Shown: positions 5,165 to 63,510, numbered from the stretch's first letter. The stretch: 64,000 bases of DNA from an uncultured Chloroflexia bacterium (GCA_963809215.1 CAWEIJ010000002.1:1108201-1172200); one strand, 5' to 3'. Notes: generated by a model from the letters alone, not told the origin. Made by a program: numbers and translations.

Positions 5165-8100
5165 ATGTTCGCACCCGTCGCCAGCAAGCCCGATCTCGTC
5201 GCCCAGGAGCACGAGATCCTCGCCCTCTGGCGCGAGCGCCGGACGTTCGCCCGCCTGCGCGCCCAGAACGCCGGTGGGCCGCGCTGGAGCTTCCTCGACG
5301 GGCCGATCACGGCCAACAACCCCATGGGCGTCCACCACGCCTGGGGCCGCACCTACAAGGACGTCTTCCAGCGGTTCCACGCCATGCGCGGCGAGGACCA
5401 GCGCTGGCAGAACGGCTTCGACTGCCAGGGCCTCTGGGTGGAGGTCAACGTCGAGCGTGACCTCGGCTTCACCTCCAAGCGCGACATCGAGGAGCACGGC
5501 ATCGCGGAGTTCGTGCGCCTCTGCAAGCAGCGGGTGCTCACCTTCGCGGCGCGCCAGACGGAGCAGTCGATCCGGCTGGGCTACTGGATGGACTGGAACG
5601 ACCCGGACGAGCTCCTCCGGCTGCGCGACCTGCTCGGCGCCGACCCGGCGGCGGAGGCGACCCTGGCCGGCCCGCTGGGTCCCGTGACCGACCGCGTGGA
5701 GATGCTCGTCGGCCGGCTCGGGATGCCGGAGCTCGGCGGGTCCTACTTCACGTTCAGCAACGAGAACAACGACCTGATCTGGGGGTTCCTTGCCGAGTGC
5801 CACCGGCGCGGCTGGCTCTACAAGGGCCACGACACGATGCCGTGGTGCGCCCGCTGCGGGACCGGGATCAGCCAGCACGAGATGACCGAGGGGTACGCGG
5901 ACCGTACCGACCCCGGCCTCACGGTCCGCCTCCCGCTTCTCGACCGGCCCGGCGAGGCCCTGCTCGCATGGACGACGACCCCCTGGACGCTCACCTCCAA
6001 CGTCGCGGCCGCGGTGGGGCCCGGGCTTCGCTACGTGAAGGTGCGCCAGGGGGACAGCGTCTTCTGGCTGGGCCGGGGGACGCTGCGCCAGGCCCTCGTG
6101 GGCCCGTTCGAGATCCTCGAGGAGCGCCCCGGCTCGGACCTGGTCGGGTGGCGCTATCGCGGCCCGTTCGACGAGCTGCCGGCCGTCCGGGCCGCGTTCG
6201 CCGGCCACGGTCCCGACGGGGCCCCGTACGAGCACCGGGTGATCCCGTGGGACGAGGTCGGCGAGGACGAGGGGACCGGGATCGTCCACATCGCGCCGGG
6301 CTGCGGGGCCGAGGACTTCGCCCTCGGGAAGGCGCTCGGACTGCCGATGCTCGCCCCGCTGGACGAGAGCGGGATCTTCATCGACGGCTTCGGGTTCCTG
6401 GCCGGACGTGACGTCCGGGACAGCGCCGACCCGGTCGTGGAGCACCTGCGCCATCACGGGCTCTTCTACCGGCTGGAGCCGATCGTCCACCGCTACCCGC
6501 ACTGCTGGCGCTGCGGCACGCCCCTCGTCTTCCGGCTGGTCGACGAGTGGTTCGTGAGCATGGGACCGGTCTACGACGTGCCGCGGGACCAGCTCACGCG
6601 GGAGCAGGTCGACGCGAGCCTGCGCTACCAGATCATGGACGTCGTGGATCGCATCCGCTGGCTGCCGTCCTTCGGATACGAGCGGGAGCTCGACTGGCTC
6701 CTCAACATGCACGACTGGATGATCAGCAAGAAGCGCTACTGGGGGCTGGCGCTGCCGATCTACGACTGTGCCGCCTGCGGCCACTTCGACGTGGTCGGGG
6801 GACGCGAGGAGCTGCGCGCGCGTGCCGTTGATGGCTGGGACCAGCTCGATGGGCACACCGCCCACCGCCCCTACGTCGACGCGGTCCGGATCGCCTGCTC
6901 CGGCTGCGGCGCGCCGGTCTCGCGGATCCTCGACGTCGGCAATCCCTGGCTCGACGCCGGGATCGTCCCGTTCTCGACGCTCCACTACCGCGAGGACCCG
7001 GCGTTCTGGCAACAATGGTTCCCGGCCGACTTCATCACCGAGAGCTTCCCCGGCCAGTTCCGGAACTGGTTCTACTCGATGCTCGCCATGAGCACGGTGC
7101 TGCGCCGCGAGCCGCCGTTCACCACGATCTTCGGCTACGCGACGCTCTTCGGCGAGGACGGGCGCCCCATGCACAAGAGCTGGGGCAACGCCATCGAGTT
7201 CGACGAGGCGGCCGAGCGGATGGGCGTCGACGTCATGCGCTGGATGTATGCGAAGGCCCGCCCGGACGACAACATCCTCTTCGGCTGGCACGCGGCCGAC
7301 GAGGCGCGACGCGAGCTGCTGGTGCTGTGGAACGTCTATGCATTCCTGGTCACGTACGCGCGGCTGGCGGGCTGGTCGCCGGGCGCCGATGCGGCGACGG
7401 CTCCCGACCCGTCGCGCGTCGCGGGCCGGCCCCCGCTCGACCGCTGGATCCTCTCGCGGCTTGCCGGTGTCGCCGCCCGGGTCGAGGATCGGCTGGCCAA
7501 CTACGACCCGGACGCCGCCGCGGGCGCGATCTCCGGCTTCATCGACGACCTCTCGACGTGGTACCTCCGACGCAACCGGAAGCGGTTCTCGCGCTCGGAT
7601 GACCTCGCCGACCGCGACGCGGCCTTCTCGACGCTCCACGCCGCGCTGTCCGGGCTGTCGCGGGTGATGGCGCCGCTCCTCCCGTTCCTGACCGAGGCGA
7701 TCCACCAGAATCTTGTCGTGGCGGCGGGGCTGGACGCACCCGCATCCGTCCACCTCACGCGCTGGCCGGCAGCGGAGCTGGCGCCCCTCCGGGATGCGGC
7801 CCTGGAGGCCGCGACCGCCCTCGCCAAGCGCGCGGTCGAGCTGGCACGCACGCTCCGTTCGCAGGCCGGCCTCAGGACGCGCCAGCCGCTGGCTCGGCTG
7901 TGGATCGCGCTCCCCGGGGACGCGCACCCGGAGCTGGACCTGCTCCTCGACGTGGTCGCTGACGAGGTCAACGTCAAGGAGGTCATCCGGATCGGCGACG
8001 AATCGGATCTCGTCGAGCGGCGAATCAAGCCGCTCCTGCCGAAGATCGGCCGGAAGCTCGGCAGCGCGATCCCCGCCGTGATGGCCGCGGCACGCGCGGG

Positions 8101-48302: not shown

Positions 48303-49574
48303 CGGATCCGGAGCCGCTTCGACCGCGCCGCCGACCCACTCCGACCGTCGATGTCGGGGGCGTGCTGGTCGGAAGCGCCCATCCCGTGGTCGTCCAGTCG
48401 ATGACGAACACCGACACGGCAGATGCCGACGCAACCGCGCTCCAGGTTGTCCGGCTGGCCGCGGCGGGGTCGCAGCTGGTGCGGGTCACCGTCAACACGG
48501 AGGCCGCAGCGGCGGCCGTTCCGGAGATGGTGCGCAAGGTCCGCGACCTCGGCTTCGAGACGCCCATCGTGGGCGACTTCCACTACAACGGCCACCAGCT
48601 CCTCGTGGACTATCCCGGAGACCGCCCGAGCGCTGGCGAAGTACCGGATCAACCCGGGCAACGTGGGCGGGAAGCGCCATGACGACAACTTCGCGACGAT
48701 CGTGCGGGTCGCGATCGAGAACGACCGGCCCGTCAGGATCGGCGTGAACTGGGGATCCCTCGACCCCGCCCTGCTGACCTCGATGATGGAAGCGAACGCG
48801 GCCCTTGCCGAGCCGCGCGACAGCCGCGACGTGACGATCGAGGCGATGCTCGCGTCGGCGCTGCGCTCAGCCGAGCTGGCGGAGGAGACCGGGCTGGCCC
48901 ACGACCGGATCATCCTGAGCGCGAAGGTGTCGGGCGTCCGCGACCTGGTGGACGTCTACCGGCGCCTTGCCGCGCAGTGCGACTACCCGCTCCACCTTGG
49001 CCTCACCGAGGCCGGCATGGGCATGAAGGGGATCGTCGCCTCGACCGCCGGCCTCAGCGTTCTCCTCAGCGAGGGGATCGGGGACACGATCCGGGTCTCC
49101 CTGACGCCGGAGCCGGGCGCGGGCCGCGAGCTCGAGGTCGAGGTCGCGCAGCAGGTGCTGCAGTCGCTGGGCCTGCGGAGCTTCATGCCCCAGGTGAGCG
49201 CGTGCCCGGGCTGCGGCCGCACGACCTCGGTCTTCTTCCAGGAGATGGCGCGCGACATCACGGCCCATCTCAGGGAGCGCATGCCGGGCTGGCGGGAGCT
49301 GCATCCTGGCGTGGAGGATCTCCGCGTGGCGGTCATGGGCTGCGTGGTGAATGGGCCGGGCGAGAGCAAGCACGCCGACATCGGGATCAGCCTCCCCGGC
49401 ACGTTCGAGGAGCCCGTGGCGCCGGTCTTCGTCGACGGGAGGCTCTTCGCGACGTTTCGCGGGGAGGACATCGTGGCCCGTTTCATCGGGCTGCTGGACG
49501 AGTACGTCGAGCGGCGCTACCCGGCCCCGGGCGGCGTAGCGGCCGCGGCCGGGGCCGGCGCGCCCGGCGAATAG
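48299..49574 (+). CDS. ispG: 4-hydroxy-3-methylbut-2-en-1-yl diphosphate synthase (flavodoxin); one +1 frame break near 48614..48620
   Basis: GTGA overlap with rseP. ...[13 protein letters not shown]...VRVTVN...[17 protein letters not shown] (ORF 47861 frame) joins [17 protein letters not shown]...HLGLTEAG...ACPGCGRT...GCVVNGPGE (ORF 48423..49574). Length is 3n+1. Confidence 0.92.
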
Positions 49575-49686
49575 CCGCCCGCGCCGAGCGCGGCGCCACG
49601 CCCGGTGCCCGTGCGCACCGGGCCGGTGCCCGGCCGCAACGGCCCCGCGTCACGTCTCCCGCACGGGGAGGTCTGCCCGCGTGCGG

Positions 49687-49692
49687 TATACT
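49687..49692 (+). promoter_or_regulatory. -10-like hexamer TATACT in the ispG-nusA spacer
   Basis: GGTATACTCGCG has the same flavour as the other TATACTCG elements in the window. It lies upstream of the terminator-like structure at 49722..49748. Confidence 0.3.
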
Positions 49693-49721
49693 CGCGCAAT
49701 CTTCGACCGCGCCGCTCCATG

Positions 49722-49748
49722 ACGTGGGTGACCCCCACGTTTTTCTTT
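49722..49748 (+). terminator. Intrinsic terminator or leader attenuator: 7-bp GC-rich stem plus U-tract
   Basis: ACGTGGG-TGACC-CCCACGT is followed directly by TTTTCTTT. This is one of very few T-runs in the window, 55 nt before the nusA ATG. Confidence 0.6.
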
Positions 49749-49802
49749 CGGTCAGCCCGGTCGGCTGCCGATGGTCGAACATGATTGTGGGAGGTGGACC
49801 GC

Positions 49803-50963
49803 ATGAGCCGCGATTTCGTGGGCGCCCTCCTGCAGCTCAACGCCGAGAAGGGCGTTCCCCGGGAGCACCTGATCCTCACGATCTCGGACGCGATCGAGTC
49901 CGCGTACCGCCGAATCCCCGGCAACGAGGACGTTCGGGTGCGGATCGACCCGGAGCGCGGCGAGATGCTGGTCACTCGCGAGCGCCTCGTCGTCGCGGTC
50001 GTCGAGGACCCGCTGACCGAGCTCACGCTCGAGGATGCGCGGTCGATCAAGCCCGACGCGACCATCGGCGAGGAGATCGTCACGGAGCAGCTGGGCCAGG
50101 ACGCATTCGGACGGATCGGCGCGCAGACGGCGAAGCAGGTCGTCCTGCAGCGCCTCCGCGAGGCCGAGCGCGACGTGGTCTACGACCAGTTCGCGAGCCG
50201 CGAGGGCGACCTCATCACCGGGACGGTCAACCGGGTCGAGCCGCGCGCGATCATCCTCGACCTGGGCAAGGCGGAGGCGATCCTCGCCACGACCGAGCAG
50301 TCGCCGGTGGAGCACTACCGGATCGGCCAGAACGTCAAGGCGTTCGTGCTGGAGGTGCGCCGCGGCCCGAAGGGCCCGCAGGTGCTGGTCAGCCGGACGC
50401 ACAAGGGGTTCCTGCGCCGGCTCTTCGAGCTCGAGGTCCCCGAGATCCATGCCGGGACGGTGGAGATCAAGGCGATCGCGCGCGAGCCCGGCAGCCGCTC
50501 GAAGGTCGCCGTCGCCTCGCGCCAGGAAGGCCTCGACCCCGTCGGGGCGACCGTGGGCCAGCGTGGCGCGCGCGTCCAGGCCGTGGTCGCGGAGCTGGCC
50601 GGCGAGAAGATCGACGTGATCGAGTGGCACGAGGACCCGGCGGTCTTCGTGGCGAAGGCGCTCAGCCCGGCCCAGGTCGTGGCCGTGCGCATCGACGAGG
50701 AGCACCGGATCGCGAGCGTCACCGTCCCCGAGAAGATGCTCTCGCTCGCGATCGGCCGCGAGGGCCAGAATGCGCGGCTCGCTGCGAAGATGACCGGCTG
50801 GCGGATCGACATCCGCAGCGACGTGCAGGCTCCCGAAGCCGCGGTACCTCCGCCCGCGGCGCCGGTTGCCGGCCCCCTTACCGAAACCGTGGCGGTCGGT
50901 GGGGTGCTGCCCGCGGACGGGCCGGCTCCGGCCGCCGCTCCCGCGGCGGAGGTGACACCGTAG
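49803..50963 (+). CDS. nusA: Transcription termination/antitermination factor NusA
   Basis: ATG 49803 follows GGGAGGTGG. S1 domain (GDLITGTVNRVEPRAIILDLG), KH1/KH2 (VGQRGARVQAVVAEL, AIGREGQNARLAAKMTGWRIDI). Confidence 0.94.
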   Translation: MSRDFVGALLQLNAEKGVPREHLILTISDAIESAYRRIPGNEDVRVRIDPERGEMLVTRERLVVAVVEDPLTELTLEDARSIKPDATIGEEIVTEQLGQDAFGRIGAQTAKQVVLQRLREAERDVVYDQFASREGDLITGTVNRVEPRAIILDLGKAEAILATTEQSPVEHYRIGQNVKAFVLEVRRGPKGPQVLVSRTHKGFLRRLFELEVPEIHAGTVEIKAIAREPGSRSKVAVASRQEGLDPVGATVGQRGARVQAVVAELAGEKIDVIEWHEDPAVFVAKALSPAQVVAVRIDEEHRIASVTVPEKMLSLAIGREGQNARLAAKMTGWRIDIRSDVQAPEAAVPPPAAPVAGPLTETVAVGGVLPADGPAPAAAPAAEVTP

Positions 50964-50998
50964 CGGGGCGGGCCGGCGGCGGCCCCCTTCGGAGGCAG

Positions 50999-51286
50999 CA
51001 TCCAACCCGGACCTGCGTCGCCTGCCGGACGCCGCGCCCGAAGCGCGAGCTGCTCCGGGTCGTGCGGACGCCTTCCGGCGCGATCACGCTCGACGCAACC
51101 GGGCGGGCGCCCGGGCGCGGCGCCTACGTCTGCGTCGACGCCGCCTGCCAGGACCTGGCGATCGCGAAGGGCACGCTGCGGCGAGCGCTCGCCGTCCCGA
51201 TTCCCATTGGGCTCTTTGACGCGACGCGGGCCGTCGCCTCGCCACCCCTGAACCAGAACCACGACGACCAAGAAGGAGGGGCCTGA
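50999..51286 (+). CDS. ylxR: YlxR family (DUF448) RNA-binding protein; start codon not identifiable
   Basis: [19 protein letters not shown]...GRGAYVC is the DUF448 core. Conserved nusA-ylxR-infB order. The stop overlaps the infB ATG (TGATG). There is no ATG/GTG/TTG in frame within 20 codons upstream, and the 5' coordinate is nominal. Confidence 0.75.
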
Positions 51287-53808: not shown

Positions 53809-54828
53809 ATGCCCATCGACCTGGGGCCGCTCGCCGCGGCCGTGCCCGAGACAGTCGTCCAGCGCGTCCGCGGTGCCCGCTGCGTCCTGGCTGTCGGTCA
53901 CGAGAACCCGGACGCCGACGCCCTGGGTGCCGCGCTCGCGATCGCGATCCTCGTCGAGGCTCTCGGCGGGCGCGCCACGGTCGCCGCGTCGGATGCCGTG
54001 CCGGACCTCTACGGGTTCCTCGAGGGCAGCGGAGCGGTGCGGACCGACCCGGAGCCGGACATCGCGTACGACCTCGTCGTCCTGTGCGACTGCGGCGACC
54101 TGTCGCGAGCCGGCGCGATCCGCGAGAGGAACGCCGCCCTCTTCGCCGCCACGCCGCTCCTCACGATCGACCATCACGCCAGCAACGATGCGTCCGGCGA
54201 CCTCGTCTGGATCGACGCGGACGCAGCGGCGACCTGCGAGATGGTCGCCCTCCTCGCGACGCGGCTCGGGGTGCCGCTGGCCGTCGGGCAGGGACGGCTC
54301 GCCGCCGCGCTCACCGCCGGCATCGTCATGGACACCGCGACATTCGCCCACCCGAACGCGACACCCAGGACGCTCCAGGTCGCGGCCGCGCTCGTGGAGG
54401 CGGGAGCGCCGCTCTCCGAGATCAGCCGTCGTCTCTATCGCACGAAGCCGGATGCGCAGCTCGCCCTCTTCGGGCGCGTGCTCGCGCGGCTCGAGTCCCA
54501 CGCCGATGGGCTGGTGATCGCCTCGACGATGGAGCTCGAGGACCTGCGGGCGACCGGCGCGCGCTCGGAGCACTCGGAGGGGATCATCGATCTCCTGGCG
54601 CAGTCGGAGACCGCTGAGGTGGCGCTCCTTCTCAAGGAGAGGGATGACGCGACACGGGTATCCGTCCGCACGAAGCCGGGCGGCGTCGACGCGACCGCGC
54701 TCTGCGGGACGTGGGGCGGCGGAGGGCACGCCCGGGCCGCCGGCGCGTCGCTCGACCTCCCGCTCGCGGCGTCCGCCGCGGTCGTCCTCCCGGTGGCGAT
54801 CCGGTTCGCCCGGGACGTGGTCCGATGA
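53809..54828 (+). CDS. nrnA: DHH/DHHA1 phosphoesterase, NrnA-type nanoRNase / pAp phosphatase
   Basis: GHENPDADALGAALA (DHH motifs I-II), DCGD, TIDHH, and C-terminal GGGGHARAAG (DHHA1). Confidence 0.88.
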   Translation: MPIDLGPLAAAVPETVVQRVRGARCVLAVGHENPDADALGAALAIAILVEALGGRATVAASDAVPDLYGFLEGSGAVRTDPEPDIAYDLVVLCDCGDLSRAGAIRERNAALFAATPLLTIDHHASNDASGDLVWIDADAAATCEMVALLATRLGVPLAVGQGRLAAALTAGIVMDTATFAHPNATPRTLQVAAALVEAGAPLSEISRRLYRTKPDAQLALFGRVLARLESHADGLVIASTMELEDLRATGARSEHSEGIIDLLAQSETAEVALLLKERDDATRVSVRTKPGGVDATALCGTWGGGGHARAAGASLDLPLAASAAVVLPVAIRFARDVVR

Positions 54829-55946
54829 CCGAGGAGCTGCCGGCGACGGACTCCTCCCAGGGCCCCGGGGAGCGCCCGGAGGGAGGCGAGACCCCGGGTA
54901 GGCCCGGGAGCCTGCCGGAGGGACAGGCGGGTTCCGCCGACCCGATCCGCGAGCGACGGCCGCGCCGCGTCGACGCTGGGCTGGACGGCATCCTCGTGGT
55001 CGACAAGCCGGTCGGACCCACGTCGCATGACGTCGTCGCGCTGGTCCGGCGCCTCGCCGGGACGAAGCGGATCGGTCACGGCGGGACGCTCGACCCGTTC
55101 GCGTCCGGTGTGCTCCCGCTCTACCTTGGCCTTGGGACGCGCGTCGTCGAGTTCCATCTCGGCGCCCGGAAGGCGTACCGCGCGACCGTCTGCTTCGGCG
55201 CCTCGTCCACGACCGACGACCTGGAGGGTGAGCTGACGCCCAGCGAGGGGCCGGCCCCGTCGCGCGAGGCGGTCGAGGCCGCGCTGGCCGGATTCCTGGG
55301 GACGCACCTCCAGCTCCCGCCGGCGTTCTCGGCGCGCAAGGTCGGCGGGCGGCGGGCGTACGCTCTCGCCCGCGCCGGGCACGCAACGGAGCTGCCGTCG
55401 CGCCAGACGACGTTCGATGCGCTCTCCCTGGAGCGCTGGGACGCGACGGACCCGGAGCGCCCGCTCGCGGTCATCGACGTGACCTGTTCGGCGGGCACCT
55501 ACGTCCGGGCGCTGGCCCGCGATCTCGGGACGGCCCTCGGCAATGCCGCATACCTGGGCGCGCTCCGGCGCACCGCTGCAGGTCCGTTCACGCTCTCGGA
55601 CGCGATCAGCCTCGAGGCAGCCCGCGAGGCCGCCGCGAACGGACGCTTCGCGGACCTGCTCCGGCCCGTCGGGACAGGCCTCGACGACCTTCCCGGCGTG
55701 ACGCTCGGTCCCGACGAGCTCGCCATCGTCGCGCACGGCGGATGGATCGGCGAGGCCGGTCGTCTGCCGGCGCCGTCGAGCGCTCCGCGGGACGCCGCTG
55801 GGGTCGCGGCACCGACGGACGCCCAGACCCGGGTCCGGCTCCTCTTCGAGGATGGATCGCTCGCCGCGATCGCGAGGCGCGTGGGTGGCCGCCTGGTGCC
55901 CGACAAGGTCCTGGTGCCGCGAGCCGGCGCCGTCCCGCGTGGCTGA
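54825..55946 (+). CDS. truB: tRNA pseudouridine55 synthase TruB (N-terminal extension of about 50 aa)
   Basis: ATGA overlap with nrnA. GILVVDKPVGPTSHDVV, catalytic GHGGTLDPFASGVL, and SAGTYVRALARDLG. Confidence 0.93.
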   Translation: MTEELPATDSSQGPGERPEGGETPGRPGSLPEGQAGSADPIRERRPRRVDAGLDGILVVDKPVGPTSHDVVALVRRLAGTKRIGHGGTLDPFASGVLPLYLGLGTRVVEFHLGARKAYRATVCFGASSTTDDLEGELTPSEGPAPSREAVEAALAGFLGTHLQLPPAFSARKVGGRRAYALARAGHATELPSRQTTFDALSLERWDATDPERPLAVIDVTCSAGTYVRALARDLGTALGNAAYLGALRRTAAGPFTLSDAISLEAAREAAANGRFADLLRPVGTGLDDLPGVTLGPDELAIVAHGGWIGEAGRLPAPSSAPRDAAGVAAPTDAQTRVRLLFEDGSLAAIARRVGGRLVPDKVLVPRAGAVPRG

Positions 55947-56808
55947 GACGGCCCGCGCGCTCACCGGCGGGACACCGGGCCACGCGGCGGAACCGGCGTC
56001 GGTGCTCCACGGCATCGGCGCGCTCCGTCCCGACGACGGCCCGCTCCTGGTGGTCGTGGGCGTCTTCGACGGGCTCCACCGCGGCCATGCCTACCTGCTC
56101 CGCGAGCTGCGCAGGGCTGCCGCCCGCCTCGGCGCCGTTCCGGCCGTGCTGACCTTCGACCACCACCCGGACGAGATCATGGCGGGCGCTGCGCCGCCGC
56201 TCCTGTGCGATCCCGGCGAACGCCTCGTACGGCTGGCGCGGGCGGGCGTCGGCGTGACCATCGTCCAGCATTTCGACGAGGCGCTCCGCCGGACGCCCTA
56301 CGACGCGTTCGTCGCGTCGATCGCGTCGCGGACCGCCCTCACGGGCTTCCTCATGACGCCGGACGCCGCGTTCGGCCACGAGCGACGGGGGACGCCGGAG
56401 GCGCTGGCCGCGCTCGGCGCGCGCGAGGGGTTCTCGGTGGTGGTCGTCCCGCCGTTCGACCTCGCGGGCCGGCAGGTGCGCAGCACCGAGATCCGCACGG
56501 CGATCGCGACGGGCGACCTCGCGACCGCCAGGGCGCTCCTTGGGCGCCGTGTCGCCGTGACCGGTGAGATCGTCGAGCGCCCGATCGACGGCCGCGAGGC
56601 GACGCTGGCGTTCGAGGTCCCTGTCGCGCTCCCACCGCCCGGGCCGTACCGGGCCACGCTCGAGCCGCCGATCGCGCCGGGCAGCGTCGCGGACCGCGCG
56701 CGGCGGGCCGTCGTGCGGGTCGGCGCGGATGGCACGCTTCGGGTGGACGCCCGGAGCGGGATCCCGGCGGGGGGCCGGTTGCGCATCTCGTTCGTCCGTC
56801 CAGCGTAG
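55939..56808 (+). CDS. ribF: RibF-like FAD synthetase (FMN adenylyltransferase domain intact; C-terminal riboflavin-kinase-like domain degenerate)
   Basis: [17 protein letters not shown]...LTFDHHP...FGHERRGT... Conserved truB-ribF-rpsO order. The C-terminal 90 aa lack the GFPTAN/GVY-type kinase motifs. Confidence 0.8.
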
Positions 56809-56851
56809 CGGAGCGTCGGGCATCGAGCCAGGTTTCGGGGCTGGGTCGCGT

Positions 56852-56880
56852 TTGCGCGAACAGCCGGCCCCTGTTACGCT
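56852..56880 (+). promoter_or_regulatory. Candidate rpsO promoter: TTGCGC - 17 nt - TACGCT, with TGT as the extended -10
   Basis: The -35-like TTGCGC (56852..56857) and TGTTACGCT (56872..56880) have consensus spacing. An unusually AT-rich leader of about 45 nt follows. Confidence 0.4.
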
Positions 56881-56930
56881 CCGCAGGTTTGCAAGAACGT
56901 TTAGTACAAGTTTTCGTGTCGGAGGACCGA

Positions 56931-57200
56931 GTGCCGCTCGTGCGGGAAACCAAGGACCGGATCGTCGCTGACTTTGCGACAAGGGAAGGCGATACCGGCT
57001 CCCCCGAGGTTCAGATCGCGCTCCTGACAGAGCGAGTCAAGGATCTCACGGGGCATCTGAGACAGTACCCCAAGGACAACCACTCCCGCCGCGGCCTCCT
57101 CAAGCTGGTTGGCCAGCGCAGGCGCCTTCTCGCGTACCTCGTCAAGAAGGACGCGCCGCGCTACCGCGCCGTCATCGCACGGCTCGGCCTGCGCCGCTGA
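56931..57200 (+). CDS. rpsO: 30S ribosomal protein S15
   Basis: GTG 56931 follows [55 protein letters not shown]. Confidence 0.94.
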
Positions 57201-57303
57201 GCACACGCTGAAGTCGGGGTAGACCCCCGCCTTCGCGCATCCGGAGGTCGGCGCGAAACGCCGGCAGCGGTCCGTCCCCGACGCGAGCGAGAAAGGAACG
57301 CTC

Positions 57304-59883
57304 GTGTCCCTCACCTTCTCCGTCGAGTTCGGCGGACGCCCCCTCACCATCGAGACGGGCAAGCTCGCCCGCCTGGCCGGCGGTGCCGTCACCGTCACCT
57401 ACGGGCAGACGGTCCTGCTCGGCACGGCCAACCGGTCCGAACCCCGCCCGGGCCTCGACTTCTTCCCGCTCACCGTGGACTTCGAGGAGCGGATGTATGC
57501 CGCCGGCAAGATCCCGGGCGGCTTCATCAAGCGCGAGTCGCGGCCGTCGGAGGCCGCCATCCTGGCCGCCCGCCTGACCGACCGGCCCATCCGGCCGCTC
57601 TTCCCCGAGGGCTACAAGGACGACGTCCAGGTCGTCCTGACCGTCCTCTCGACGGACCAGGAGAACAACCCGGACGTCCTCGGCACGATCGCCGCGTCCG
57701 CCGCGCTGACGATCAGCGAGATCCCGTTCCTCGGCCCGATCGGCGCCGTGCGCATCGGCCGGATCAACGGCGAGCTCGTGATCAACCCCACGATGCCCGA
57801 GCTGGCCGAGTCGGACCTCGACCTCATCGTGTCCGGCACGCGCGACGCGATCATGATGGTGGAGGCCGGCGCGAAGATCCTGCCCGAGTCCGTGATGGCC
57901 GAGGCGATCCTCTTCGGTCATCGCGCCCTGCAGCCGCTCGTCGACATCCAGCTCCAGCTCCAGGAGGCGGTCGGCAAGACCAAGCGGATCCCGTTCCTCG
58001 AGGCCGGGACCGGCTCCGTGCTCGACTTCGCCGAGAAGGCCAAGGCCGGCGCCGAGTTCGTCGTCCTCGACGTCGAGACGACGGGCACGAATCCCGAGAT
58101 GGCCGATCTCGTCGAGATCGCCGCCGTCCGAGTCAAGAAGGGCAAGGTCGCCGACCGCTGGTCGACGTTCGTCAACCCGGGCCGCGCGATCTTTGGCAAC
58201 CAGATGCACGGGATCACCGACAAGGACGTCGCCGGCGCGCCGAGCCCCGCGGACGCCGCCAGGCAGGCGCTGGCGTTCATCGGCGACGCGACCCTCGTCG
58301 GTCACTCGGTCGGGTTCGACATCGCGTTCGTCGAGGCTGCGCTCGCCGACGGGACCCGGGTCCGTCCGGGCACCTACCTCGACACGCTCACGCTGGCCCG
58401 GGATGGCTACCCGGACCTTCCCAGCTACACGCTGGGCGAGCTCTCGCGCTTCTTCGGGATCGAGCTGAAGCAGGCCCACCGCGCCCTCCCCGACGCGGAG
58501 GCCACGGCTGCGCTCCTCCTCGCGATCGCGGCGGACCTGCCGGGCCGCCTCGCGGCCCTCTCGGACGGCGTCGCGGACTCGATCCGGGCCAGCCGGACGT
58601 CGAAGGACGACGCGAAGGCGAAGCTCGAGGCGGCGCGGCGAACGGCACGCGTCTCGAAGTCGCTCTTCGGCCTGGTCCACAAGAAGACCGCCCGCAGGCT
58701 GACCCTCACCGAGGGGATCCGCATGGACGGGCGCGGCGTCGACGAGCTGCGGACCATCACGGTCGAGGTCGGCGTGCTGCCTCGCGCGCACGGCTCGGGC
58801 CTCTTCACCCGCGGCGAGACGCAGGCGCTCACGATCGCGACCCTCGGCCCGTCCTCGGACGTCCAGCGGATCGACACGATCAGCCCGGAGACCGAGAAGC
58901 GCTACATCCACCACTACAACATGCCGCCGTACAGCACCGGCGAGAACAAGATGATGCGGGGCCCCGGCCGGCGCGAGATCGGCCACGGCCACCTCGCGGA
59001 GCGGGCGCTCCTCCCGGTGCTCCCCAGCCCGGACGAGTTCCCCTACGTCATCCGCCTCGTCTCGGAGTGCGTCACGTCGAACGGCTCCACCTCGATGGCC
59101 TCCACGTGCGGCTCCACGCTGGCGCTCATGGACGCCGGCGTGCCGATCACGGCGCCGGTCGCCGGCGCGGCGATGGGCCTGATGTCCGAGGCGGACGGGA
59201 CGTTCACCGTCCTCACCGACATCCTCGGCAAGGAGGACTCGTTCGGCGACATGGACTTCAAGGTCACCGGGACCCGGGACGGCATCACGGCCCTCCAGAT
59301 GGACATCAAGGTGACCGGCATCAGCGAGGCGATCATCCGGCAGGGGCTCGAGAAGGCCCACGCCGCGCGGATGACGATCCTCGACAAGATGCTCGAGGTC
59401 ATGCCATCCGCCCGCGACACGATGAGCGACTTCGCCCCGCGCATCACCAAGATCAAGATCAACCCGGAGAAGATCCGCGACATCATCGGCAAGGGCGGCT
59501 CCATGATCCGGAAGATCCAGGAGGAGACCGGCACGGAGATCAACGTCGAGGACGACGGCACCGTCGAGATCGCGGCGGTCTCCGGAGAGAACGCCCGCAA
59601 GGCGATCCACTGGATCGAATCTCTCACCCGCGAGGTGGAGATCGGCGCGTTGTACCTGGGCACCGTGACCCGCCTGATGACCTTCGGCGCATTCGTCGAG
59701 ATCCTCCCGGGCAAGGAGGGCCTCGTCCGCATCGGCGAGCTCGCCGACTACCACGTCCCCTCGGTCGAGGACGTGGTCTCGGTGGGCGACGAGGTGATGG
59801 TGGTCGTGACCGAGGTCGACCGCCAGGGCCGGGTCAACCTGTCCCGCAAGGCCGCGATGCAGCGCCACCTCGCGAAGGGCTGA
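57304..59883 (+). CDS. pnp: Polyribonucleotide nucleotidyltransferase (PNPase) with an inserted DEDDh exonuclease domain
   Basis: 859 aa, intact. PH1 (FPLTVDFEERMYAAGKIPGGF.KRE), PH2 (RREIGHGHLAERAL...FKVTGTRDGITALQMDIK), KH (IIGKGGSMIRKIQEETG) and S1 (GTVTRLMTFGAFVEI), plus an insertion of about 165 aa between PH1 and PH2. Confidence 0.95.
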   Translation: MSLTFSVEFGGRPLTIETGKLARLAGGAVTVTYGQTVLLGTANRSEPRPGLDFFPLTVDFEERMYAAGKIPGGFIKRESRPSEAAILAARLTDRPIRPLFPEGYKDDVQVVLTVLSTDQENNPDVLGTIAASAALTISEIPFLGPIGAVRIGRINGELVINPTMPELAESDLDLIVSGTRDAIMMVEAGAKILPESVMAEAILFGHRALQPLVDIQLQLQEAVGKTKRIPFLEAGTGSVLDFAEKAKAGAEFVVLDVETTGTNPEMADLVEIAAVRVKKGKVADRWSTFVNPGRAIFGNQMHGITDKDVAGAPSPADAARQALAFIGDATLVGHSVGFDIAFVEAALADGTRVRPGTYLDTLTLARDGYPDLPSYTLGELSRFFGIELKQAHRALPDAEATAALLLAIAADLPGRLAALSDGVADSIRASRTSKDDAKAKLEAARRTARVSKSLFGLVHKKTARRLTLTEGIRMDGRGVDELRTITVEVGVLPRAHGSGLFTRGETQALTIATLGPSSDVQRIDTISPETEKRYIHHYNMPPYSTGENKMMRGPGRREIGHGHLAERALLPVLPSPDEFPYVIRLVSECVTSNGSTSMASTCGSTLALMDAGVPITAPVAGAAMGLMSEADGTFTVLTDILGKEDSFGDMDFKVTGTRDGITALQMDIKVTGISEAIIRQGLEKAHAARMTILDKMLEVMPSARDTMSDFAPRITKIKINPEKIRDIIGKGGSMIRKIQEETGTEINVEDDGTVEIAAVSGENARKAIHWIESLTREVEIGALYLGTVTRLMTFGAFVEILPGKEGLVRIGELADYHVPSVEDVVSVGDEVMVVVTEVDRQGRVNLSRKAAMQRHLAKG
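58051..58545 (+). other. DnaQ/RNase T-like DEDDh 3'-5' exonuclease domain embedded in PNPase (about aa 250-414)
   Basis: Exo I FVVLDVETTG (D256/E258), Exo II LVGHSVGFDIAFV (D339), Exo III HRALPDAEATAALL (H392/D397). In frame with pnp on both sides. Confidence 0.85.
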
Positions 59884-59932
59884 CCCCGCCGCGGGCCGTC
59901 CGCCGGCCGGCCGGCAGCTCGTCGACACTCGC

Positions 59933-59956
59933 GTGCCCCCGGGAGACCGGGGGCAC
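59933..59956 (+). terminator. Perfect 10-bp GC hairpin after pnp (no clear U-tract)
   Basis: GTGCCCCCGG-GAGA-CCGGGGGCAC, 50 nt after the pnp stop. It abuts the asd -10 element. Confidence 0.45.
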
Positions 59957-59958
59957 GC

Positions 59959-59967
59959 TGGTATACT
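59959..59967 (+). promoter_or_regulatory. Extended -10 element TGGTATACT, 6 nt before GTG 59974 (leaderless geometry for asd)
   Basis: TATACT at 59962..59967, spacer cgggcc, GTG at 59974. This is identical to the geometry at def. Confidence 0.45.
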
Positions 59968-59973
59968 CGGGCC

Positions 59974-61089
59974 GTGCCCGCCAGTCCATCCACGAGCAGC
60001 GGAGCCATGTCCTTCACCACCACCCGACCCCTCACGGTTGCGGTCGTCGGCGCCACCGGCGTCGTCGGGCGCACGATGATCTCGGTCCTGCTCGAGCGGG
60101 CCTTCCCGATGGGCGAGCTCCGGCTCCTGGCGTCGGGCCGCTCCGCCGGCATGACCGTGCCCGTCGCGGGCCGGCCTCTCTCCGTCATGGAGGCGACGGC
60201 GGAAGCCTTCGAGGGCGTGGACATCGCGCTCTTCTCGGCCGGGGCGGACATCTCGCGCGAGCTCGCGCCGCAGGCGGTCGCCCGCGGCTGCACCGTGATC
60301 GACAACTCGAACGCCTGGCGGATGGACCCGGGGATCCCGCTCGTGGTCAGCCAGGTCAACCCCTCGGACCTCGCGGCTCACGAGGGCATCATCGCGAACC
60401 CGAACTGCAGCACGATGCAGCTCGTGCCGCTGCTGATGGCACTGCGGGACGGACCCGGCCTGGAGCGCGTCGTCGTGGACACGTACCAGGCGGTGTCGGG
60501 GACCGGCGCGGACGCGATCGCGGAGCTGGAGACGCAGATCCGGGCGCACGCGGCGGGCGTCCCCAAGGAGGCCAGGGTCTACCCGCACCCCATCGCGTTC
60601 AACGCGCTGCCCGAGATCGACGTCTTCCTTGAGAACGGCTACACGAAGGAAGAGTGGAAGGTCGTCTCCGAGAGCCGCAAGATCCTCCATCTGCCCGACC
60701 TGCGCGTCTCCTGCACCGCCGTCCGGGTCCCGGTCTTCGTCGGGCACTCGGAGGCCGTCCACGTCGAGACCAGCCTGCCGGTCACGCCTGCCGCCGCCCG
60801 TGCCCTCTTCGCGCGCGTGCCGGGCGTGGAGGTGCGGGACGATCCGGTCGCCCACGTGTACCCGCTCGCGACCGAGGCGGCGGGCAGGGACGAGGTCTTC
60901 GTCGGCCGCGTCCGGCAGGACCCGTCGATCCCGGACGGGCGCGGCCTCGCGTTCTGGTGCGTCTCCGACAACGTGCGCAAGGGTGCGGCAACCAATGCCG
61001 TCGAGCTCGCCGAGCTGCTGGTCGCGCGCGGTTGGGTCGCGCCCGCATCGCGCCGCGCACGACCCGCGGAGGCGGAGACGCTCGCGTGA
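59974..61089 (+). CDS. asd: Aspartate-semialdehyde dehydrogenase
   Basis: VAVVGATGVVG, NPNCSTMQ (active-site Cys), YQAVSGTG, and CVSDNVRKGAATNAVE. An alternative start is ATG 60007. Confidence 0.93.
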   Translation: MPASPSTSSGAMSFTTTRPLTVAVVGATGVVGRTMISVLLERAFPMGELRLLASGRSAGMTVPVAGRPLSVMEATAEAFEGVDIALFSAGADISRELAPQAVARGCTVIDNSNAWRMDPGIPLVVSQVNPSDLAAHEGIIANPNCSTMQLVPLLMALRDGPGLERVVVDTYQAVSGTGADAIAELETQIRAHAAGVPKEARVYPHPIAFNALPEIDVFLENGYTKEEWKVVSESRKILHLPDLRVSCTAVRVPVFVGHSEAVHVETSLPVTPAAARALFARVPGVEVRDDPVAHVYPLATEAAGRDEVFVGRVRQDPSIPDGRGLAFWCVSDNVRKGAATNAVELAELLVARGWVAPASRRARPAEAETLA

Positions 61090-61827: not shown

Positions 61828-63510
61828 ATGACCAACCAGAGTCCCGCGACCAACGACACGCCGCTCCGCATCATCCCGCTCGGCGGGGTGGGGGAGATCG
61901 GCAAGAACATGTACGTGTTCGAATATGACGACGACATCGTCGTGATCGACTGCGGCCTGATGTTCCCCGACGAGGAGATGTTCGGGATCGACCTGGTCAT
62001 CCCCGACATCTCGTACCTCAAGGAGCATCGCGCCAAGGTCCGCGCGTTCCTCATCACGCACGCCCACGAGGATCACGTCGGCGCGCTGCCCTACGTCCTG
62101 CCGGAGTTCCCGGGCGTCCCCGTGTACGCCTCCACGCTGGCGCGCGGGCTCCTGGGCAACAAGATCAAGGAGCACAAGCTCCACAACAACCCGCTGATCG
62201 GGCTCGAGCCGGGCGACGAGATCCGGATCGGGCCGTTCACGGTCGTCCCGTTCCGGATCGGGCACTCGATCCCGGACGCGATGGGGATCGCGCTCCGCAC
62301 GCCGGTCGGCACGGTCGTCCACACGGGCGACTTCAAGTTCGACCACACGCCCGTCGACGGCAGGCTGTCGGACTTCCACATCCTCGCCAAGCTCGGCGCG
62401 GAAGGCGTGATCTGCCTGCTCTCGGACTCGACGCGCGCCGAGAACCCCGGCTACACGCCGTCCGAACGGACCGTCGGGGAGGCGTTCCGCGAGATCATGG
62501 AGCCGCTCGACGGCCGGGTCATCGTGGCCACCTTCGCGAGCAACATCGCCCGCGTCCAGCAGGTCCTCGACGCCGCGGCAAGCTTCAACCGCAAGGTGGC
62601 CGTCATCGGCCGCTCGATGGAGCAGAACTTCCGGATCGCCAGCGACCTGGGCTACCTGACCTACGACGCGGATCGGATCGTGGCCAAGGACCGGATCAGC
62701 GACATCGAGCCCAACAAGCTCGTCATCTGCACGACGGGCGCCCAGGGCGAGCCCATGGCCGGCCTCGCCCGGATGGCCAACCGCGACCACCGGTTCGTGG
62801 AGATCCAGCCGGGCGACACGGTGATCGTCTCGGCGAGCCCGATCCCCGGCAACGAGGAATACGTCTCGCGCACGATCGACAACCTCTTCAAGGCCGGCGC
62901 CAACGTGTACTACCACGCCATCAAGCGGGCGCACGTCTCCGGGCACGCCAGCCAGGAGGAGCTCAAGCTGATGCTCGGCCTGACGAAGCCGCGCTACTTC
63001 ATCCCGATGCACGGCGAGTTCCGGATGCAGGTGCAGCACGGACGGCTGGCGATCGAGACCGGCGTCGCGCCGGAGAACGTCTTCATCATCGAGAACGGGA
63101 TGCCGATCGAGATCCTCGCCGACGGCAGCGCCCGACGCGGCGCGCCCGTCACGGCGGGCTACGTCTACGTCGACGGCCTCTCGGTGGGCGAGGTCGGGGA
63201 GATCGTGCTGCGCGATCGCCGCGCGCTCGCGAACGACGGCATGTTCATGGTCGTCGTCACGGTCGACAAGCAGACCGGGTCCGTCATCGGGCAGCCGGAG
63301 GTGATCACGCGCGGCTTCGTCCACCTCAACGAGAAGGACCCGATCATGGCCGAGGCGATCCGCCGGGTCGTGAGCTCCATCGAGAACCCGGGCAGCCACA
63401 TCAGCGAGGTCGCGCTCCTCAAGAGCCAGATCAAGGATGGCGTCTCGCGGTACCTCTACGAGCAGACGAAGCGGCGGCCGATGGTCTTCCCGGTCGTCGT
63501 CGAGGTCTAG
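61828..63510 (+). CDS. rnj: Ribonuclease J
   Basis: 560 aa. Metallo-beta-lactamase HAHEDHVGALP, beta-CASP, HVSGHASQEEL, and a C-terminal domain. Confidence 0.94.
   Translation: MTNQSPATNDTPLRIIPLGGVGEIGKNMYVFEYDDDIVVIDCGLMFPDEEMFGIDLVIPDISYLKEHRAKVRAFLITHAHEDHVGALPYVLPEFPGVPVYASTLARGLLGNKIKEHKLHNNPLIGLEPGDEIRIGPFTVVPFRIGHSIPDAMGIALRTPVGTVVHTGDFKFDHTPVDGRLSDFHILAKLGAEGVICLLSDSTRAENPGYTPSERTVGEAFREIMEPLDGRVIVATFASNIARVQQVLDAAASFNRKVAVIGRSMEQNFRIASDLGYLTYDADRIVAKDRISDIEPNKLVICTTGAQGEPMAGLARMANRDHRFVEIQPGDTVIVSASPIPGNEEYVSRTIDNLFKAGANVYYHAIKRAHVSGHASQEELKLMLGLTKPRYFIPMHGEFRMQVQHGRLAIETGVAPENVFIIENGMPIEILADGSARRGAPVTAGYVYVDGLSVGEVGEIVLRDRRALANDGMFMVVVTVDKQTGSVIGQPEVITRGFVHLNEKDPIMAEAIRRVVSSIENPGSHISEVALLKSQIKDGVSRYLYEQTKRRPMVFPVVVEV

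Follow-up and report, generated by a model that had tools for sequence, protein, structure and literature searches.

PNPase is among the most conserved and most studied enzymes of RNA decay, and the arrangement of its domains is considered invariable all the way from bacteria to human mitochondria; in the published structures its all-α domain lies on the face opposite the KH and S1 domains. The canonical bacterial enzymes (TIGR03591), exemplified by those solved from E. coli (3CDI/7OGK) and S. epidermidis (5YJJ), are built in the order PH1, all-α, PH2, KH and S1, PH1 and PH2 being RNase PH domains, and the solved ones comprise about 700–785 amino acids.

The eukaryotic RNA exosome, made of the Exo9 PH ring plus the hydrolytic exonucleases Rrp6 (DEDDy) and Rrp44, likewise combines an RNase PH ring and S1/KH domains with a hydrolytic 3′–5′ exonuclease of the DEDD superfamily, but the association is non-covalent and the PH ring is catalytically dead. 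The same coupling of a phosphorolytic PNPase with a hydrolytic enzyme of the DEDD family occurs in human mitochondria, where decay proceeds in two steps, first by the PNPase-SUV3 degradosome and then by the separate DEDDh enzyme REXO2 (PMC7261184), and in Caulobacter, whose degradosome contains PNPase and RNase D (PMC4245959). REXO2 (Orn-type DEDDh) and RNase D (DEDDy) are nevertheless separate polypeptides and represent DEDD subfamilies other than that of the domain described below. In PolC-type polymerase III, on the other hand, a DEDDh domain is inserted into the PHP domain and lies inside a host that acts on 3′ ends; yet this host is a templated DNA polymerase and not a phosphorolytic ribonuclease, and PNPase has nothing that obviously corresponds to its proofreading logic.

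The PNPase considered here is encoded within a stretch of 64,000 nucleotides from an uncultured Chloroflexia bacterium (GCA_963809215.1), referred to as the window. It shares with the canonical enzymes the order of the domains, the phosphorolytic motifs and the rpsO-pnp synteny, but it has 859 amino acids and contains a 161-aa cassette that they lack, namely a DEDDh exonuclease domain. Unlike the exosome, the fused PNPase owes its exonuclease to covalent insertion and retains its phosphorolytic site; as in PolC, the DEDDh domain is internal, whereas in DinG and in the DNA repair fusions (GIY-YIG, BRCT, FAN1/VRR_NUC) it is terminal and the partner domains act on DNA.

The pnp locus and the inserted domain

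The pnp reading frame begins with GTG and contains neither a stop codon nor a change of frame, as an earlier note on this DNA had stated. The protein scores 930 bits with the PNPase model TIGR03591 (NCBIfam; cut-off 525), the match being divided into two stretches on either side of the insert, and a Pfam scan of its 859 residues yields RNase_PH and RNase_PH_C (twice each), KH, S1 and RNase_T/PF00929, the PNPase order of two RNase PH domains followed by KH and then S1 being kept (Table 1). The adjacency of rpsO marks the fused gene as the orthologous, housekeeping rpsO-pnp locus. Furthermore, infB, an NrnA-like gene (also announced by the earlier note), truB, ribF, rpsO, pnp and the gene of RNase J lie together within 12 kb; the neighborhood is an RNA-processing and translation cluster, with no repair genes nearby. 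An Rfam scan of the whole 64-kb window and folding of the rpsO-pnp intergenic region (z = -0.95) gave nothing notable.

Table 1. Position of the features of the pnp locus, counted from the first nucleotide of the window.
Feature	Position	Strand	Evidence or remark
DHH/DHHA1 (NrnA-like) ORF	53809-54828		2.5 kb upstream of pnp
rpsO (ribosomal protein S15)	56889..57200	+	Pfam Ribosomal_S15, E = 4e-34; immediately upstream of pnp
pnp, PNPase with inserted DEDDh exonuclease, 859 aa	57304..59883	+	TIGR03591, Pfam
RNase PH domain 1, aa 1-226	57304..57981	+	Pfam RNase_PH, RNase_PH_C; PDB PNPases align over aa 4-226
All-α domain, N-terminal part, aa 227-249	57982..58050	+	flexible stretch, then short helix into the insert
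Inserted DEDDh (DnaQ-like) 3′–5′ exonuclease, aa 250-410	58051..58533	+	PF00929, PDB matches, Foldseek
Exo I, D256/E258 (within FVVLDVETTG)	58069-58077	+	catalytic motif of the insert
Exo II, D339 (within GHSVGFD)	58318-58320	+	catalytic motif of the insert
Exo III, H392/D397, HRALPD	58477-58494	+	catalytic motif of the insert
All-α domain, C-terminal part, aa 411-465, helical	58534..58698	+	AF2/DSSP; aligns to 8zaw residues 276 onward
RNase PH domain 2, phosphorolytic catalytic, aa 466-700	58699..59403	+	Pfam RNase_PH aa 481-614
PH2 motif RREIGHG	58969-58989	+	phosphorolytic site
PH2 motif NGSTSMAS	59080-59103	+	phosphorolytic site
PH2 motif GDMDFK	59245-59262	+	phosphorolytic site; longer form EDSFGDMDFK
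KH domain, aa 713-772	59440..59619	+	Pfam KH_1, E = 1.2e-12 (Pfam match aa 715-772)
S1 domain, aa 778-849	59635..59850	+	Pfam S1, E = 7e-18

The main claim of the earlier note, that a complete DEDDh domain resides in frame within PNPase, is borne out: PF00929 matches aa 253-405 over the entire length of its profile (positions 1-164/164) with E = 2.5e-27, and this exonuclease-family match, on which the claim had been made to depend, reaches 96.9 bits against a cut-off of 24. The five catalytic residues D256, E258, D339, H392 and D397 are where the note had placed them. Of the span originally proposed (58051-58545, aa 250-414), the start holds while the end has been refined to 58533 (aa 410). 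The location at the helical linker was likewise correct, but the exonuclease apparently does not take the place of the linker, the all-α domain being split with its length intact. Indeed, in silico excision of aa 250-410 leaves a 698-aa protein that matches TIGR03591 in a single stretch (positions 2-688/689, 941.6 bits) and, since this protein fits the PNPase model from end to end, the insert appears to be a clean 161-aa cassette that splits the all-α domain instead of replacing it.

The cassette enters the all-α domain after its first helix and before its second, 23 + 55 aa (78 aa) of the domain surrounding the insert. The corresponding Pfam model, PF03726, is unmatched on the native protein and gives a weak match after excision (E = 0.018, 15.9 bits vs a cut-off of 24.6, profile positions 49-80); length, predicted helices and the end-to-end match to TIGR03591 together point to an all-α domain that is there, though in two pieces. 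The alternative suggested by the PDB alignment, namely that the insert replaces ~37 residues of the α-domain, is rejected on the basis of the excision test.

An AF2 sub-model of aa 221-470 (pLDDT 88.8, pTM 0.86) and Foldseek support an RNase H-like α/β fold for the insert. In the AF2 models the stretch aa 228-237 has pLDDT < 50 and is followed by a helix (aa 239-247) leading into the insert, whereas on the other side DSSP assigns helices to aa 394-429, 434-448 and 452-470, with pLDDT > 90, the first of which is the last helix of the exonuclease continuing as a single helix into the all-α domain. The full-length AF2 model, calculated from an alignment of 33 sequences of 81–92% identity, is poor (mean pLDDT 59.8, with PH2, KH and S1 poorly modelled) and has been left out of the geometry arguments.

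The composition of the insert resembles that of its flanks, as previously remarked, GC3 being 0.94 compared with 0.96-1.00 in the flanking domains of pnp; because this value is close to that of the rest of the gene, the insert is apparently old and ameliorated. The remark that the insertion is not intein-like also stands, in that Pfam finds no Hint or homing-endonuclease domain.

Conservation and affinity of the exonuclease

The fused architecture is common to at least 120 protein clusters of 81–96% identity, each with PF00929 and PNPase domains, which come from NCBI, ENA and JGI and in part from contigs of up to 2 Mb; it is also carried by 16 GTDB species-representative loci (71–81% identity, at least 16 species-level genomes), in 16/16 of which the S15 gene is directly upstream of the fused pnp, and by a divergent full-length member (P0122, 68% identity). 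Insertion point and junctions are identical across the orthologues. The size of the E-value and the conservation in independent assemblies exclude chance, and it is by this conservation, rather than by the read mapping that had been proposed, that a misassembly is excluded.

The named genomes with the fusion are those of Ca. Limnocylindrales or other Chloroflexota and, as seen among the matches listed, the fusion is restricted to this one lineage. No independent PNPase-DEDDh fusion in other lineages appears among the best 150 representatives and the 80 genome loci listed, every non-family match in these listings being a DEDDh-only protein. The 50%-identity representative search also returned many matches of 33–50% identity (such as P0157, P0159, P0195, P0201 and P0265), whose interpretation as divergent or degenerate inserts is rejected by alignment: the gene is very GC-rich, and these are Arg/Pro-rich pieces of it, frameshifted in assemblies of low quality, and no evidence for decay of the exonuclease domain.

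The five DEDDh residues show no variation in 121/121 full-length homologues or throughout the 16 sequences of the species-locus alignment (15 of the 16 loci plus the window), and their HGITD and GHxxxFD surroundings are equally invariant over 121 or more sequences whose overall divergence reaches 32%. As to the phosphorolytic site, the PH2 motifs RR[DE]IGHG, NGSTSMAS and GDMDFK are invariant in 12/12 full-length sequences (the window and 11 species loci) and correspond to R398/R399/H403, S437-439 and D486/D492/K494 of E. coli; they align with the same motifs in 5YJJ and 8ZAW. The dN/dS ratio, which amounts to 0.34 for the insert, 0.17 for PH1, 0.18 for PH2 and 0.48-0.56 for the linkers, indicates that the insert is under purifying selection, even though its evolution is ~2x faster than that of the PH cores.

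By sequence and by predicted fold, the insert comes closest to the exonucleases of PolC, DinG and DnaQ-epsilon. In the PDB its closest solved relative is PolC (9QPC, 2P1J; E = 1e-24, 36% identity, rmsd 2.0 Å), followed by DinG (about 1e-16), epsilon (about 1e-9) and RNase T (2F96, 1e-4), whereas no Orn/REXO2 chain is matched at E <= 1e-3 although the PDB contains both. The order given by Foldseek agrees, with DinG, PolC, DnaQ and epsilon (probability 1.00, rmsd 2.0-2.5 Å) ahead of RNase T and with S. aureus DinG, which has an N-terminal DEDDh domain (8ZEF), as the top match (1.6e-11). The best NCBIfam matches are also to PolC, DinG and epsilon, a single domain being unable to reach the whole-protein cut-offs, and Orn or RNase T models are absent among the 25 families listed. 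The nearest free-standing relatives among the matches listed (43–47% identity) are all proteins of DNA metabolism, namely FAN1-like VRR_NUC proteins, DinG helicases, PolC and BRCT or GIY-YIG fusions. The designation "RNase T-type" used in the earlier note is therefore acceptable as the name of the Pfam family but not as a statement of affinity.

Possible functions of the fused enzyme

Our preferred explanation, which we consider probable, is that the housekeeping PNPase of the Ca. Limnocylindria type is a bifunctional, phosphorolytic and hydrolytic 3′-end enzyme whose DEDDh cassette is presumed to be competent; the intact DEDDh residues and their conservation suggest that the insert is catalytically active. 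PH2 would retain its Pi-dependent, reversible reaction with release of NDP, and a module of the DnaQ/PolC/DinG clade of DEDDh exonucleases would provide a second, metal-dependent and irreversible hydrolytic site releasing NMP, presumably one per protomer and three per trimer. Since the last exonuclease helix is predicted to run into the all-α domain, which lies beside the phosphorolytic site and probably controls the access of Pi/NDP (PMC6181284, PMC12685370), this site would be rigidly held near the catalytic face of the ring instead of dangling on a tether. The bifunctional enzyme could then hydrolyze single-stranded 3′ ends that are bound by PNPase but cannot be finished by phosphorolysis, candidate substrates being short limit oligonucleotides, 3′ tails, blocked or stalled ends and any end when Pi is scarce. 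The roles put forward in the earlier note, namely nanoRNA finishing, tail trimming or structure clearing, are speculative.

That the substrate would mainly be RNA is suggested only by the host enzyme and its RNA-processing neighborhood. Sequence does not reveal which sugar a DEDDh domain prefers, and a role at DNA 3′ ends would be at least as compatible with the ancestry of the domain as the RNA roles. It is possible, if somewhat unlikely, that the insert is a DNA 3′-end processing module serving PNPase in repair or recombination, general RNA decay being left to the phosphorolytic site alone; such a module might, for example, resect or clean the 3′ ends of single-stranded DNA or process the ends of R-loops or RNA-DNA hybrids. 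The closest relatives of the insert, to which Cas2-DEDDh may be added, are indeed DNA-metabolism exonucleases, and in B. subtilis and E. coli PNPase itself is documented to act as a 3′–5′ exonuclease on ssDNA and to take part in DNA repair (PMC2709576, PMC3241651, PMC5379764). On the other hand, the KH and S1 domains of the host are intact and the surrounding cluster contains no repair genes. Furthermore, DEDDh domains often discriminate poorly between sugars, so that ancestry does not fix the substrate: RNase T is active on DNA (PMC3942315) and REXO2 displays no preference for RNA or DNA dinucleotides (PMC6900737).

A more ambitious version of the bifunctional enzyme, which must be regarded as doubtful, is one in which the two sites are mechanically coupled through the channel, so that a 3′ end, having passed the KH/S1 pore and the PH ring, could be delivered to either of them, as in a single-polypeptide bacterial "exosome". 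In PolC the end of the primer moves back and forth between the polymerase and the exonuclease site, and the exosome ring feeds Rrp44; since here too the DEDDh domain is internal to a host acting on 3′ ends, as in PolC, 3′ ends could in principle shuttle between the two sites. If true, such a coupling would allow decay to alternate between a reversible, Pi-dependent mode that conserves energy and an irreversible, Pi-independent one, for instance where phosphate is scarce, as is typical of oligotrophic soils and lakes.

That the insert is specialized as an Orn/REXO2-like nanoRNase (dinuclease), finishing the 2-5-nt products of PNPase and replacing a missing Orn, appears unlikely. PNPase releases short oligonucleotides, and in other systems their degradation is completed by a DEDDh enzyme (PMC9779919, PMC7261184); a location beside the phosphorolytic site would also suit the capture of such products. 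The PolC/DinG/epsilon-like rather than RNase T/Orn-like character of the insert, documented above by the PDB and NCBIfam comparisons, weakens the notion of a built-in nanoRNase. Orn is a homodimer with a 5′-phosphate cap, of which no counterpart is detectable in the insert, and oligonucleotide finishing represents no obvious unmet need because an NrnA-like nanoRNase is encoded in the same cluster.

It is more improbable still that the insert is a catalytically dead structural, regulatory or interaction module, for instance for Pi/NDP gating or the docking of a partner; its grafting onto a regulatory domain (the all-α domain; PMC6181284) and its faster evolution compared with the PH cores could be adduced in favor, but the invariance of the five catalytic residues and of their surroundings is unexpected for a dead domain. 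Finally, the possibilities of a chimeric assembly and of a recently inserted mobile element or intein, for which only the unusual length of the protein would speak, can be dismissed as next to impossible in view of the shared insertion point and junctions, the flank-like GC3, the dN/dS and the Pfam result, the chimera being already refuted by conservation.

Implications for PNPase and for RNA decay

A literature search found no description or test of a PNPase with a built-in DEDDh exonuclease, in keeping with the earlier note, which knew of no characterised PNPase with this architecture. Annotation is also a problem: public databases call some of the fused proteins simply PNPase and others "DNA polymerase III epsilon subunit family exonuclease", names from which the fused architecture cannot be recognized.

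In this analysis the Limnocylindria-type Chloroflexota are represented only by MAGs of uncultured bacteria, for which soil and freshwater are frequent sources, and to our knowledge their core RNA metabolism is otherwise unstudied. The lineage-wide variant of PNPase that they possess would represent a natural experiment on the keeping of both phosphorolytic and hydrolytic 3′–5′ decay and a covalent bacterial counterpart of the association between ring and DEDD exonuclease in the exosome; in view of the ancestry of the insert among DNA enzymes, the variant may also reveal a link between PNPase and the processing of DNA 3′ ends.

Architecture of the fused PNPase and anatomy of the insertion

The pnp product of the window scores as a member of two families, PNPase (TIGR03591) and DEDDh exonuclease (PF00929). 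The NCBIfam model TIGR03591 is matched with 930 bits (cut-off 525) in two stretches flanking the insert, a DnaQ-like 3'-5' exonuclease domain at aa 250–410, and PF00929 is covered from end to end (164 positions; E = 2.5e-27; 96.9 bits, gathering score 24). These matches bear out the claim of an earlier, sequence-only note that a complete exonuclease domain lies inside this PNPase, and the catalytic residues that it had named, D256, E258, D339, H392 and D397 (Exo I, II and III), are all in place. Its remark that the insert resembles its flanks in codon usage and GC content likewise holds, GC3 being 0.94 vs 0.96–1.00 in the other PNPase domains and the codon usage cosine between the insert and the rest of pnp being 0.88, about the likeness of the two RNase PH domains, PH1 and PH2, to each other (0.92); base composition is uniform across the insert and the other domains.

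Features of the rpsO-pnp region and domains of the window PNPase
Feature	Position	Strand	Remarks
DHH/DHHA1 (NrnA-like) ORF	53809-54828	+	within infB...truB-ribF-rpsO-pnp cluster
rpsO	56889-57200	+	Pfam S15; pnp directly downstream
pnp ORF	57304..59883	+	859 aa, GTG start
RNase_PH x2 + RNase_PH_C x2			window PNPase; Pfam
RNase_T/PF00929	aa 253-405		between the two PH halves; Pfam
KH_1	aa 715-772		Pfam
S1	aa 778-849		Pfam
asd	59974-61089		between pnp and RNase J gene
RNase J gene	61828-63510	+	beta-CASP, RMMBL, RNase_J_C domains; ~2 kb downstream of pnp

Alignment to solved PNPases places the end of PH1 at ~aa 226 and the restart of PNPase homology at aa 412–458. When aa 250–410 are excised in silico, the remaining 698 aa match TIGR03591 in a single stretch (positions 2–688 of 689, 941.6 bits) and the exonuclease therefore appears to be a clean 161-aa cassette that has split, and not replaced, the all-alpha domain, i.e., the helical linker between PH1 and PH2 in whose stead it had previously been placed. 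This domain persists as 23 aa ahead of the insert and 55 aa behind it and seems too diverged for the Pfam threshold, the excised protein giving a weak, sub-threshold match to PF03726 (E = 0.018).

An AlphaFold2 sub-model of aa 221–470 is confident (pLDDT 88.8, pTM 0.86) and predicts one unbroken helix (aa 394–429) running from the last exonuclease helix, the one bearing H392 and D397, into the all-alpha domain, the next predicted helices being aa 434–448 and 452–470. The N-terminal connection (aa 228–237) has low model confidence and is probably flexible. The full-length model is poor (pLDDT 59.8) because the alignment is shallow, and no geometry was drawn from it.

Proposed function and ancestry of the insert

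In PNPase crystal structures the all-alpha domain lies on the ring face opposite KH/S1. This domain adjoins the PH2 active site (PMC6181284, PMC12685370) and in the human enzyme a lysine of the domain contacts RNA near this site (PMC12685370). Since the predicted continuous helix ties the insert to the all-alpha domain, the DEDDh domain would be fixed in place close to the catalytic, distal face of the ring, in three copies per trimer. The enzyme would be bifunctional, with PH2 carrying out reversible, Pi-dependent phosphorolysis and the insert irreversible, metal-dependent hydrolysis of single-stranded 3' ends which PNPase binds but is unable to finish; limit oligonucleotides, tails and stalled ends are candidate substrates, as is any end at low Pi. 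That the insert is an active hydrolytic module complementing phosphorolysis, with RNA favored over DNA as its substrate, is the reading that we consider reasonably probable. A bolder version, in which the 3' end is switched between the two sites through the channel as in a single-chain bacterial “exosome”, is speculative and rather improbable.

The ancestry of the domain speaks for a different substrate. The best NCBIfam matches of the insert are PRK07883 DEDD exonuclease proteins and the DinG, PolC and epsilon exonucleases, and against the PDB by sequence the ranking is PolC (E 1e-24), DinG (1e-16), DnaQ, epsilon and Cas2-DEDDh (~1e-9) and RNase T (1e-4). With the confident sub-model as query, Foldseek yields DinG, PolC, DnaQ and epsilon, then RNase T, ExoI and ExoX, so that the ranking by predicted structure agrees with that by sequence, and the “RNase T-type” label of the earlier note survives only as a Pfam family name. 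Among the representative-library matches listed, the nearest free-standing relatives (43–47% identity) are FAN1_HTH + VRR_NUC + DEDDh proteins, DinG-like helicases, PolC, DEDDh + BRCT and DEDDh + GIY-YIG(+UVR), all of which are architectures of DNA metabolism. The insert probably derives from the promiscuous DnaQ/PolC/DinG clade, whose members recur as fusions with other enzymes or as insertions in them; the exonuclease domain of PolC is also an internal insertion.

This ancestry, together with the documented action of PNPase as an ssDNA exonuclease and in repair (PMC2709576, PMC3241651, PMC5379764), favors a role primarily in DNA 3'-end repair. On the other hand, both the host enzyme and the gene neighborhood (infB, NrnA-like, truB, ribF, rpsO, pnp, RNase J) speak for RNA, and we regard the DNA role as a serious though unlikely alternative. 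Sequence cannot decide between the two substrates because DEDDh domains often discriminate poorly between sugars (PMC3942315, PMC6900737). A dedicated, Orn-like nanoRNase is more doubtful still: neither Orn nor REXO2 matched the insert at E ≤ 1e-3 in the PDB sequence search, and the cluster that encodes the PNPase-DEDDh fusion also holds a candidate nanoRNase (the NrnA-like ORF).

All five DEDDh residues are unchanged throughout the 121/121 full-length homologues and all 16 species-locus sequences (the window and 15 of 16 loci, the alignment leaving out the frameshifted, unalignable L016), the surrounding motifs ETTG, QMHGITD, GHxxGFD and HRAxxDAE being also conserved; that the insert is an inactive scaffold is very improbable. 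The median pairwise dN/dS (Nei-Gojobori; window and 11 full-length species loci) is 0.34 for the insert, 0.17 for PH1, 0.18 for PH2, 0.15 for KH-S1 and 0.48–0.56 for the linkers, values that are inflated in absolute terms because GC3 of ~0.97 constrains synonymous sites while their ranking holds; the insert is under purifying selection, of a strength between that on the linkers (weaker) and that on the PH cores (stronger). In the same 12 sequences the phosphorolytic motifs RR[DE]IGHG, NGSTSMAS and GDMDFK are invariant and align with those of solved PNPases, so that the phosphorolytic site is apparently maintained; unlike the ring of the eukaryotic exosome, which has lost its own chemistry, the fused PNPase ring is predicted to have kept it.

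Distribution and genomic setting

Homologues fall into at least 120 clusters (81–96% identity) from NCBI, ENA and JGI, some on 0.5–2 Mb contigs, all with PF00929 and PNPase domains and with lengths of 839–865 aa save for one 796-aa entry. Scanning one genome per GTDB species with the insert and its junctions gave at least 16 loci with a full-length match, in records titled Candidatus Limnocylindrales, Chloroflexia or Chloroflexota, apart from three short contigs in otherwise-labelled bins. By tblastn all 16 encode an insert-bearing PNPase (71–81% identity; 12 full-length, four cut by a contig end) with S15 directly upstream; the window itself has the classical rpsO-pnp arrangement, and the fused gene appears to be the orthologous housekeeping pnp and not a paralogue. 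PNPase flanks were found in none of the 64 other listed loci with DEDDh domains (≤46% identity). When 1.84 billion representatives clustered at 50% identity were searched exhaustively by HMMER with a junction-spanning query (aa 181–500), only 61 proteins reached E ≤ 1e-30. Nearly all are fragments of this family; one is a divergent full-length member of the same architecture (P0122, 864 aa, 68% identity). These searches indicate that the architecture is real, of single origin and confined to one Chloroflexota lineage; the chance that it is an artefact is negligible.

Several seemingly divergent representatives proved on alignment to be frameshifted, Arg/Pro-rich mistranslations (P0129, P0131, P0150, P0153, P0157, P0159, P0195, P0201 and P0265), alternating true PNPase sequence with out-of-frame Arg/Pro-rich text; frameshifted copies of GC-rich pnp thus swell apparent diversity in clustered protein databases. 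L016 (CAVZTA010000016.1, MAG MFD00392.bin.2.297) carries the fused pnp in two reading frames (tblastn segments 5350–6216 and 6279–7910), the break at 6217–6278 interrupting the exonuclease domain (between aa 293 and 314); it is probably an assembly indel error rather than a pseudogene. Three contigs of 2–16 kb with Limnocylindria-type rpsO-pnp(DEDDh), L005 (DATLVO010000031.1), L013 (DATNFQ010000235.1) and L015 (DASRJS010000073.1), come from MAGs that bear the labels Verrucomicrobiia, Patescibacteria group and Polarisedimenticolia, and are most simply explained by binning contamination.

In the window, three RNA-decay genes lie within ~10 kb. The long Arg/Pro/Gly-rich ORFs on the opposite strand or in other frames over 55600–61000, e.g., 57172–60855 (−), 1227 aa antisense to pnp, are spurious, their great length being due to GC3 of ~0.97. 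A 769-aa ORF (48977–51286, +) has as its sole match a C-terminal YlxR/DUF448 (aa 678–748), its N-terminal part being probably a spurious extension over a putative nusA frame (49785–50963).

Novelty and meaning of the fusion

Full-text literature searches found no paper describing a PNPase-DEDD fusion, in keeping with the earlier note, which knew of no characterised PNPase of this kind. In the only related cases found, REXO2 acting after PNPase-SUV3 (PMC7261184) and RNase D in the Caulobacter degradosome (PMC4245959), the exonuclease and PNPase are separate polypeptides, whereas here a single chain carries both activities' domains. Public annotation splits the fused proteins between “polyribonucleotide nucleotidyltransferase” and “DNA polymerase III epsilon subunit family exonuclease”, and the architecture has therefore been visible in databases yet unremarked. 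Each of the two families is familiar by itself, the novelty residing in their combination and in the position of the insert; though a domain fusion of familiar parts, PNPase-DEDDh would surprise a specialist in RNA decay.
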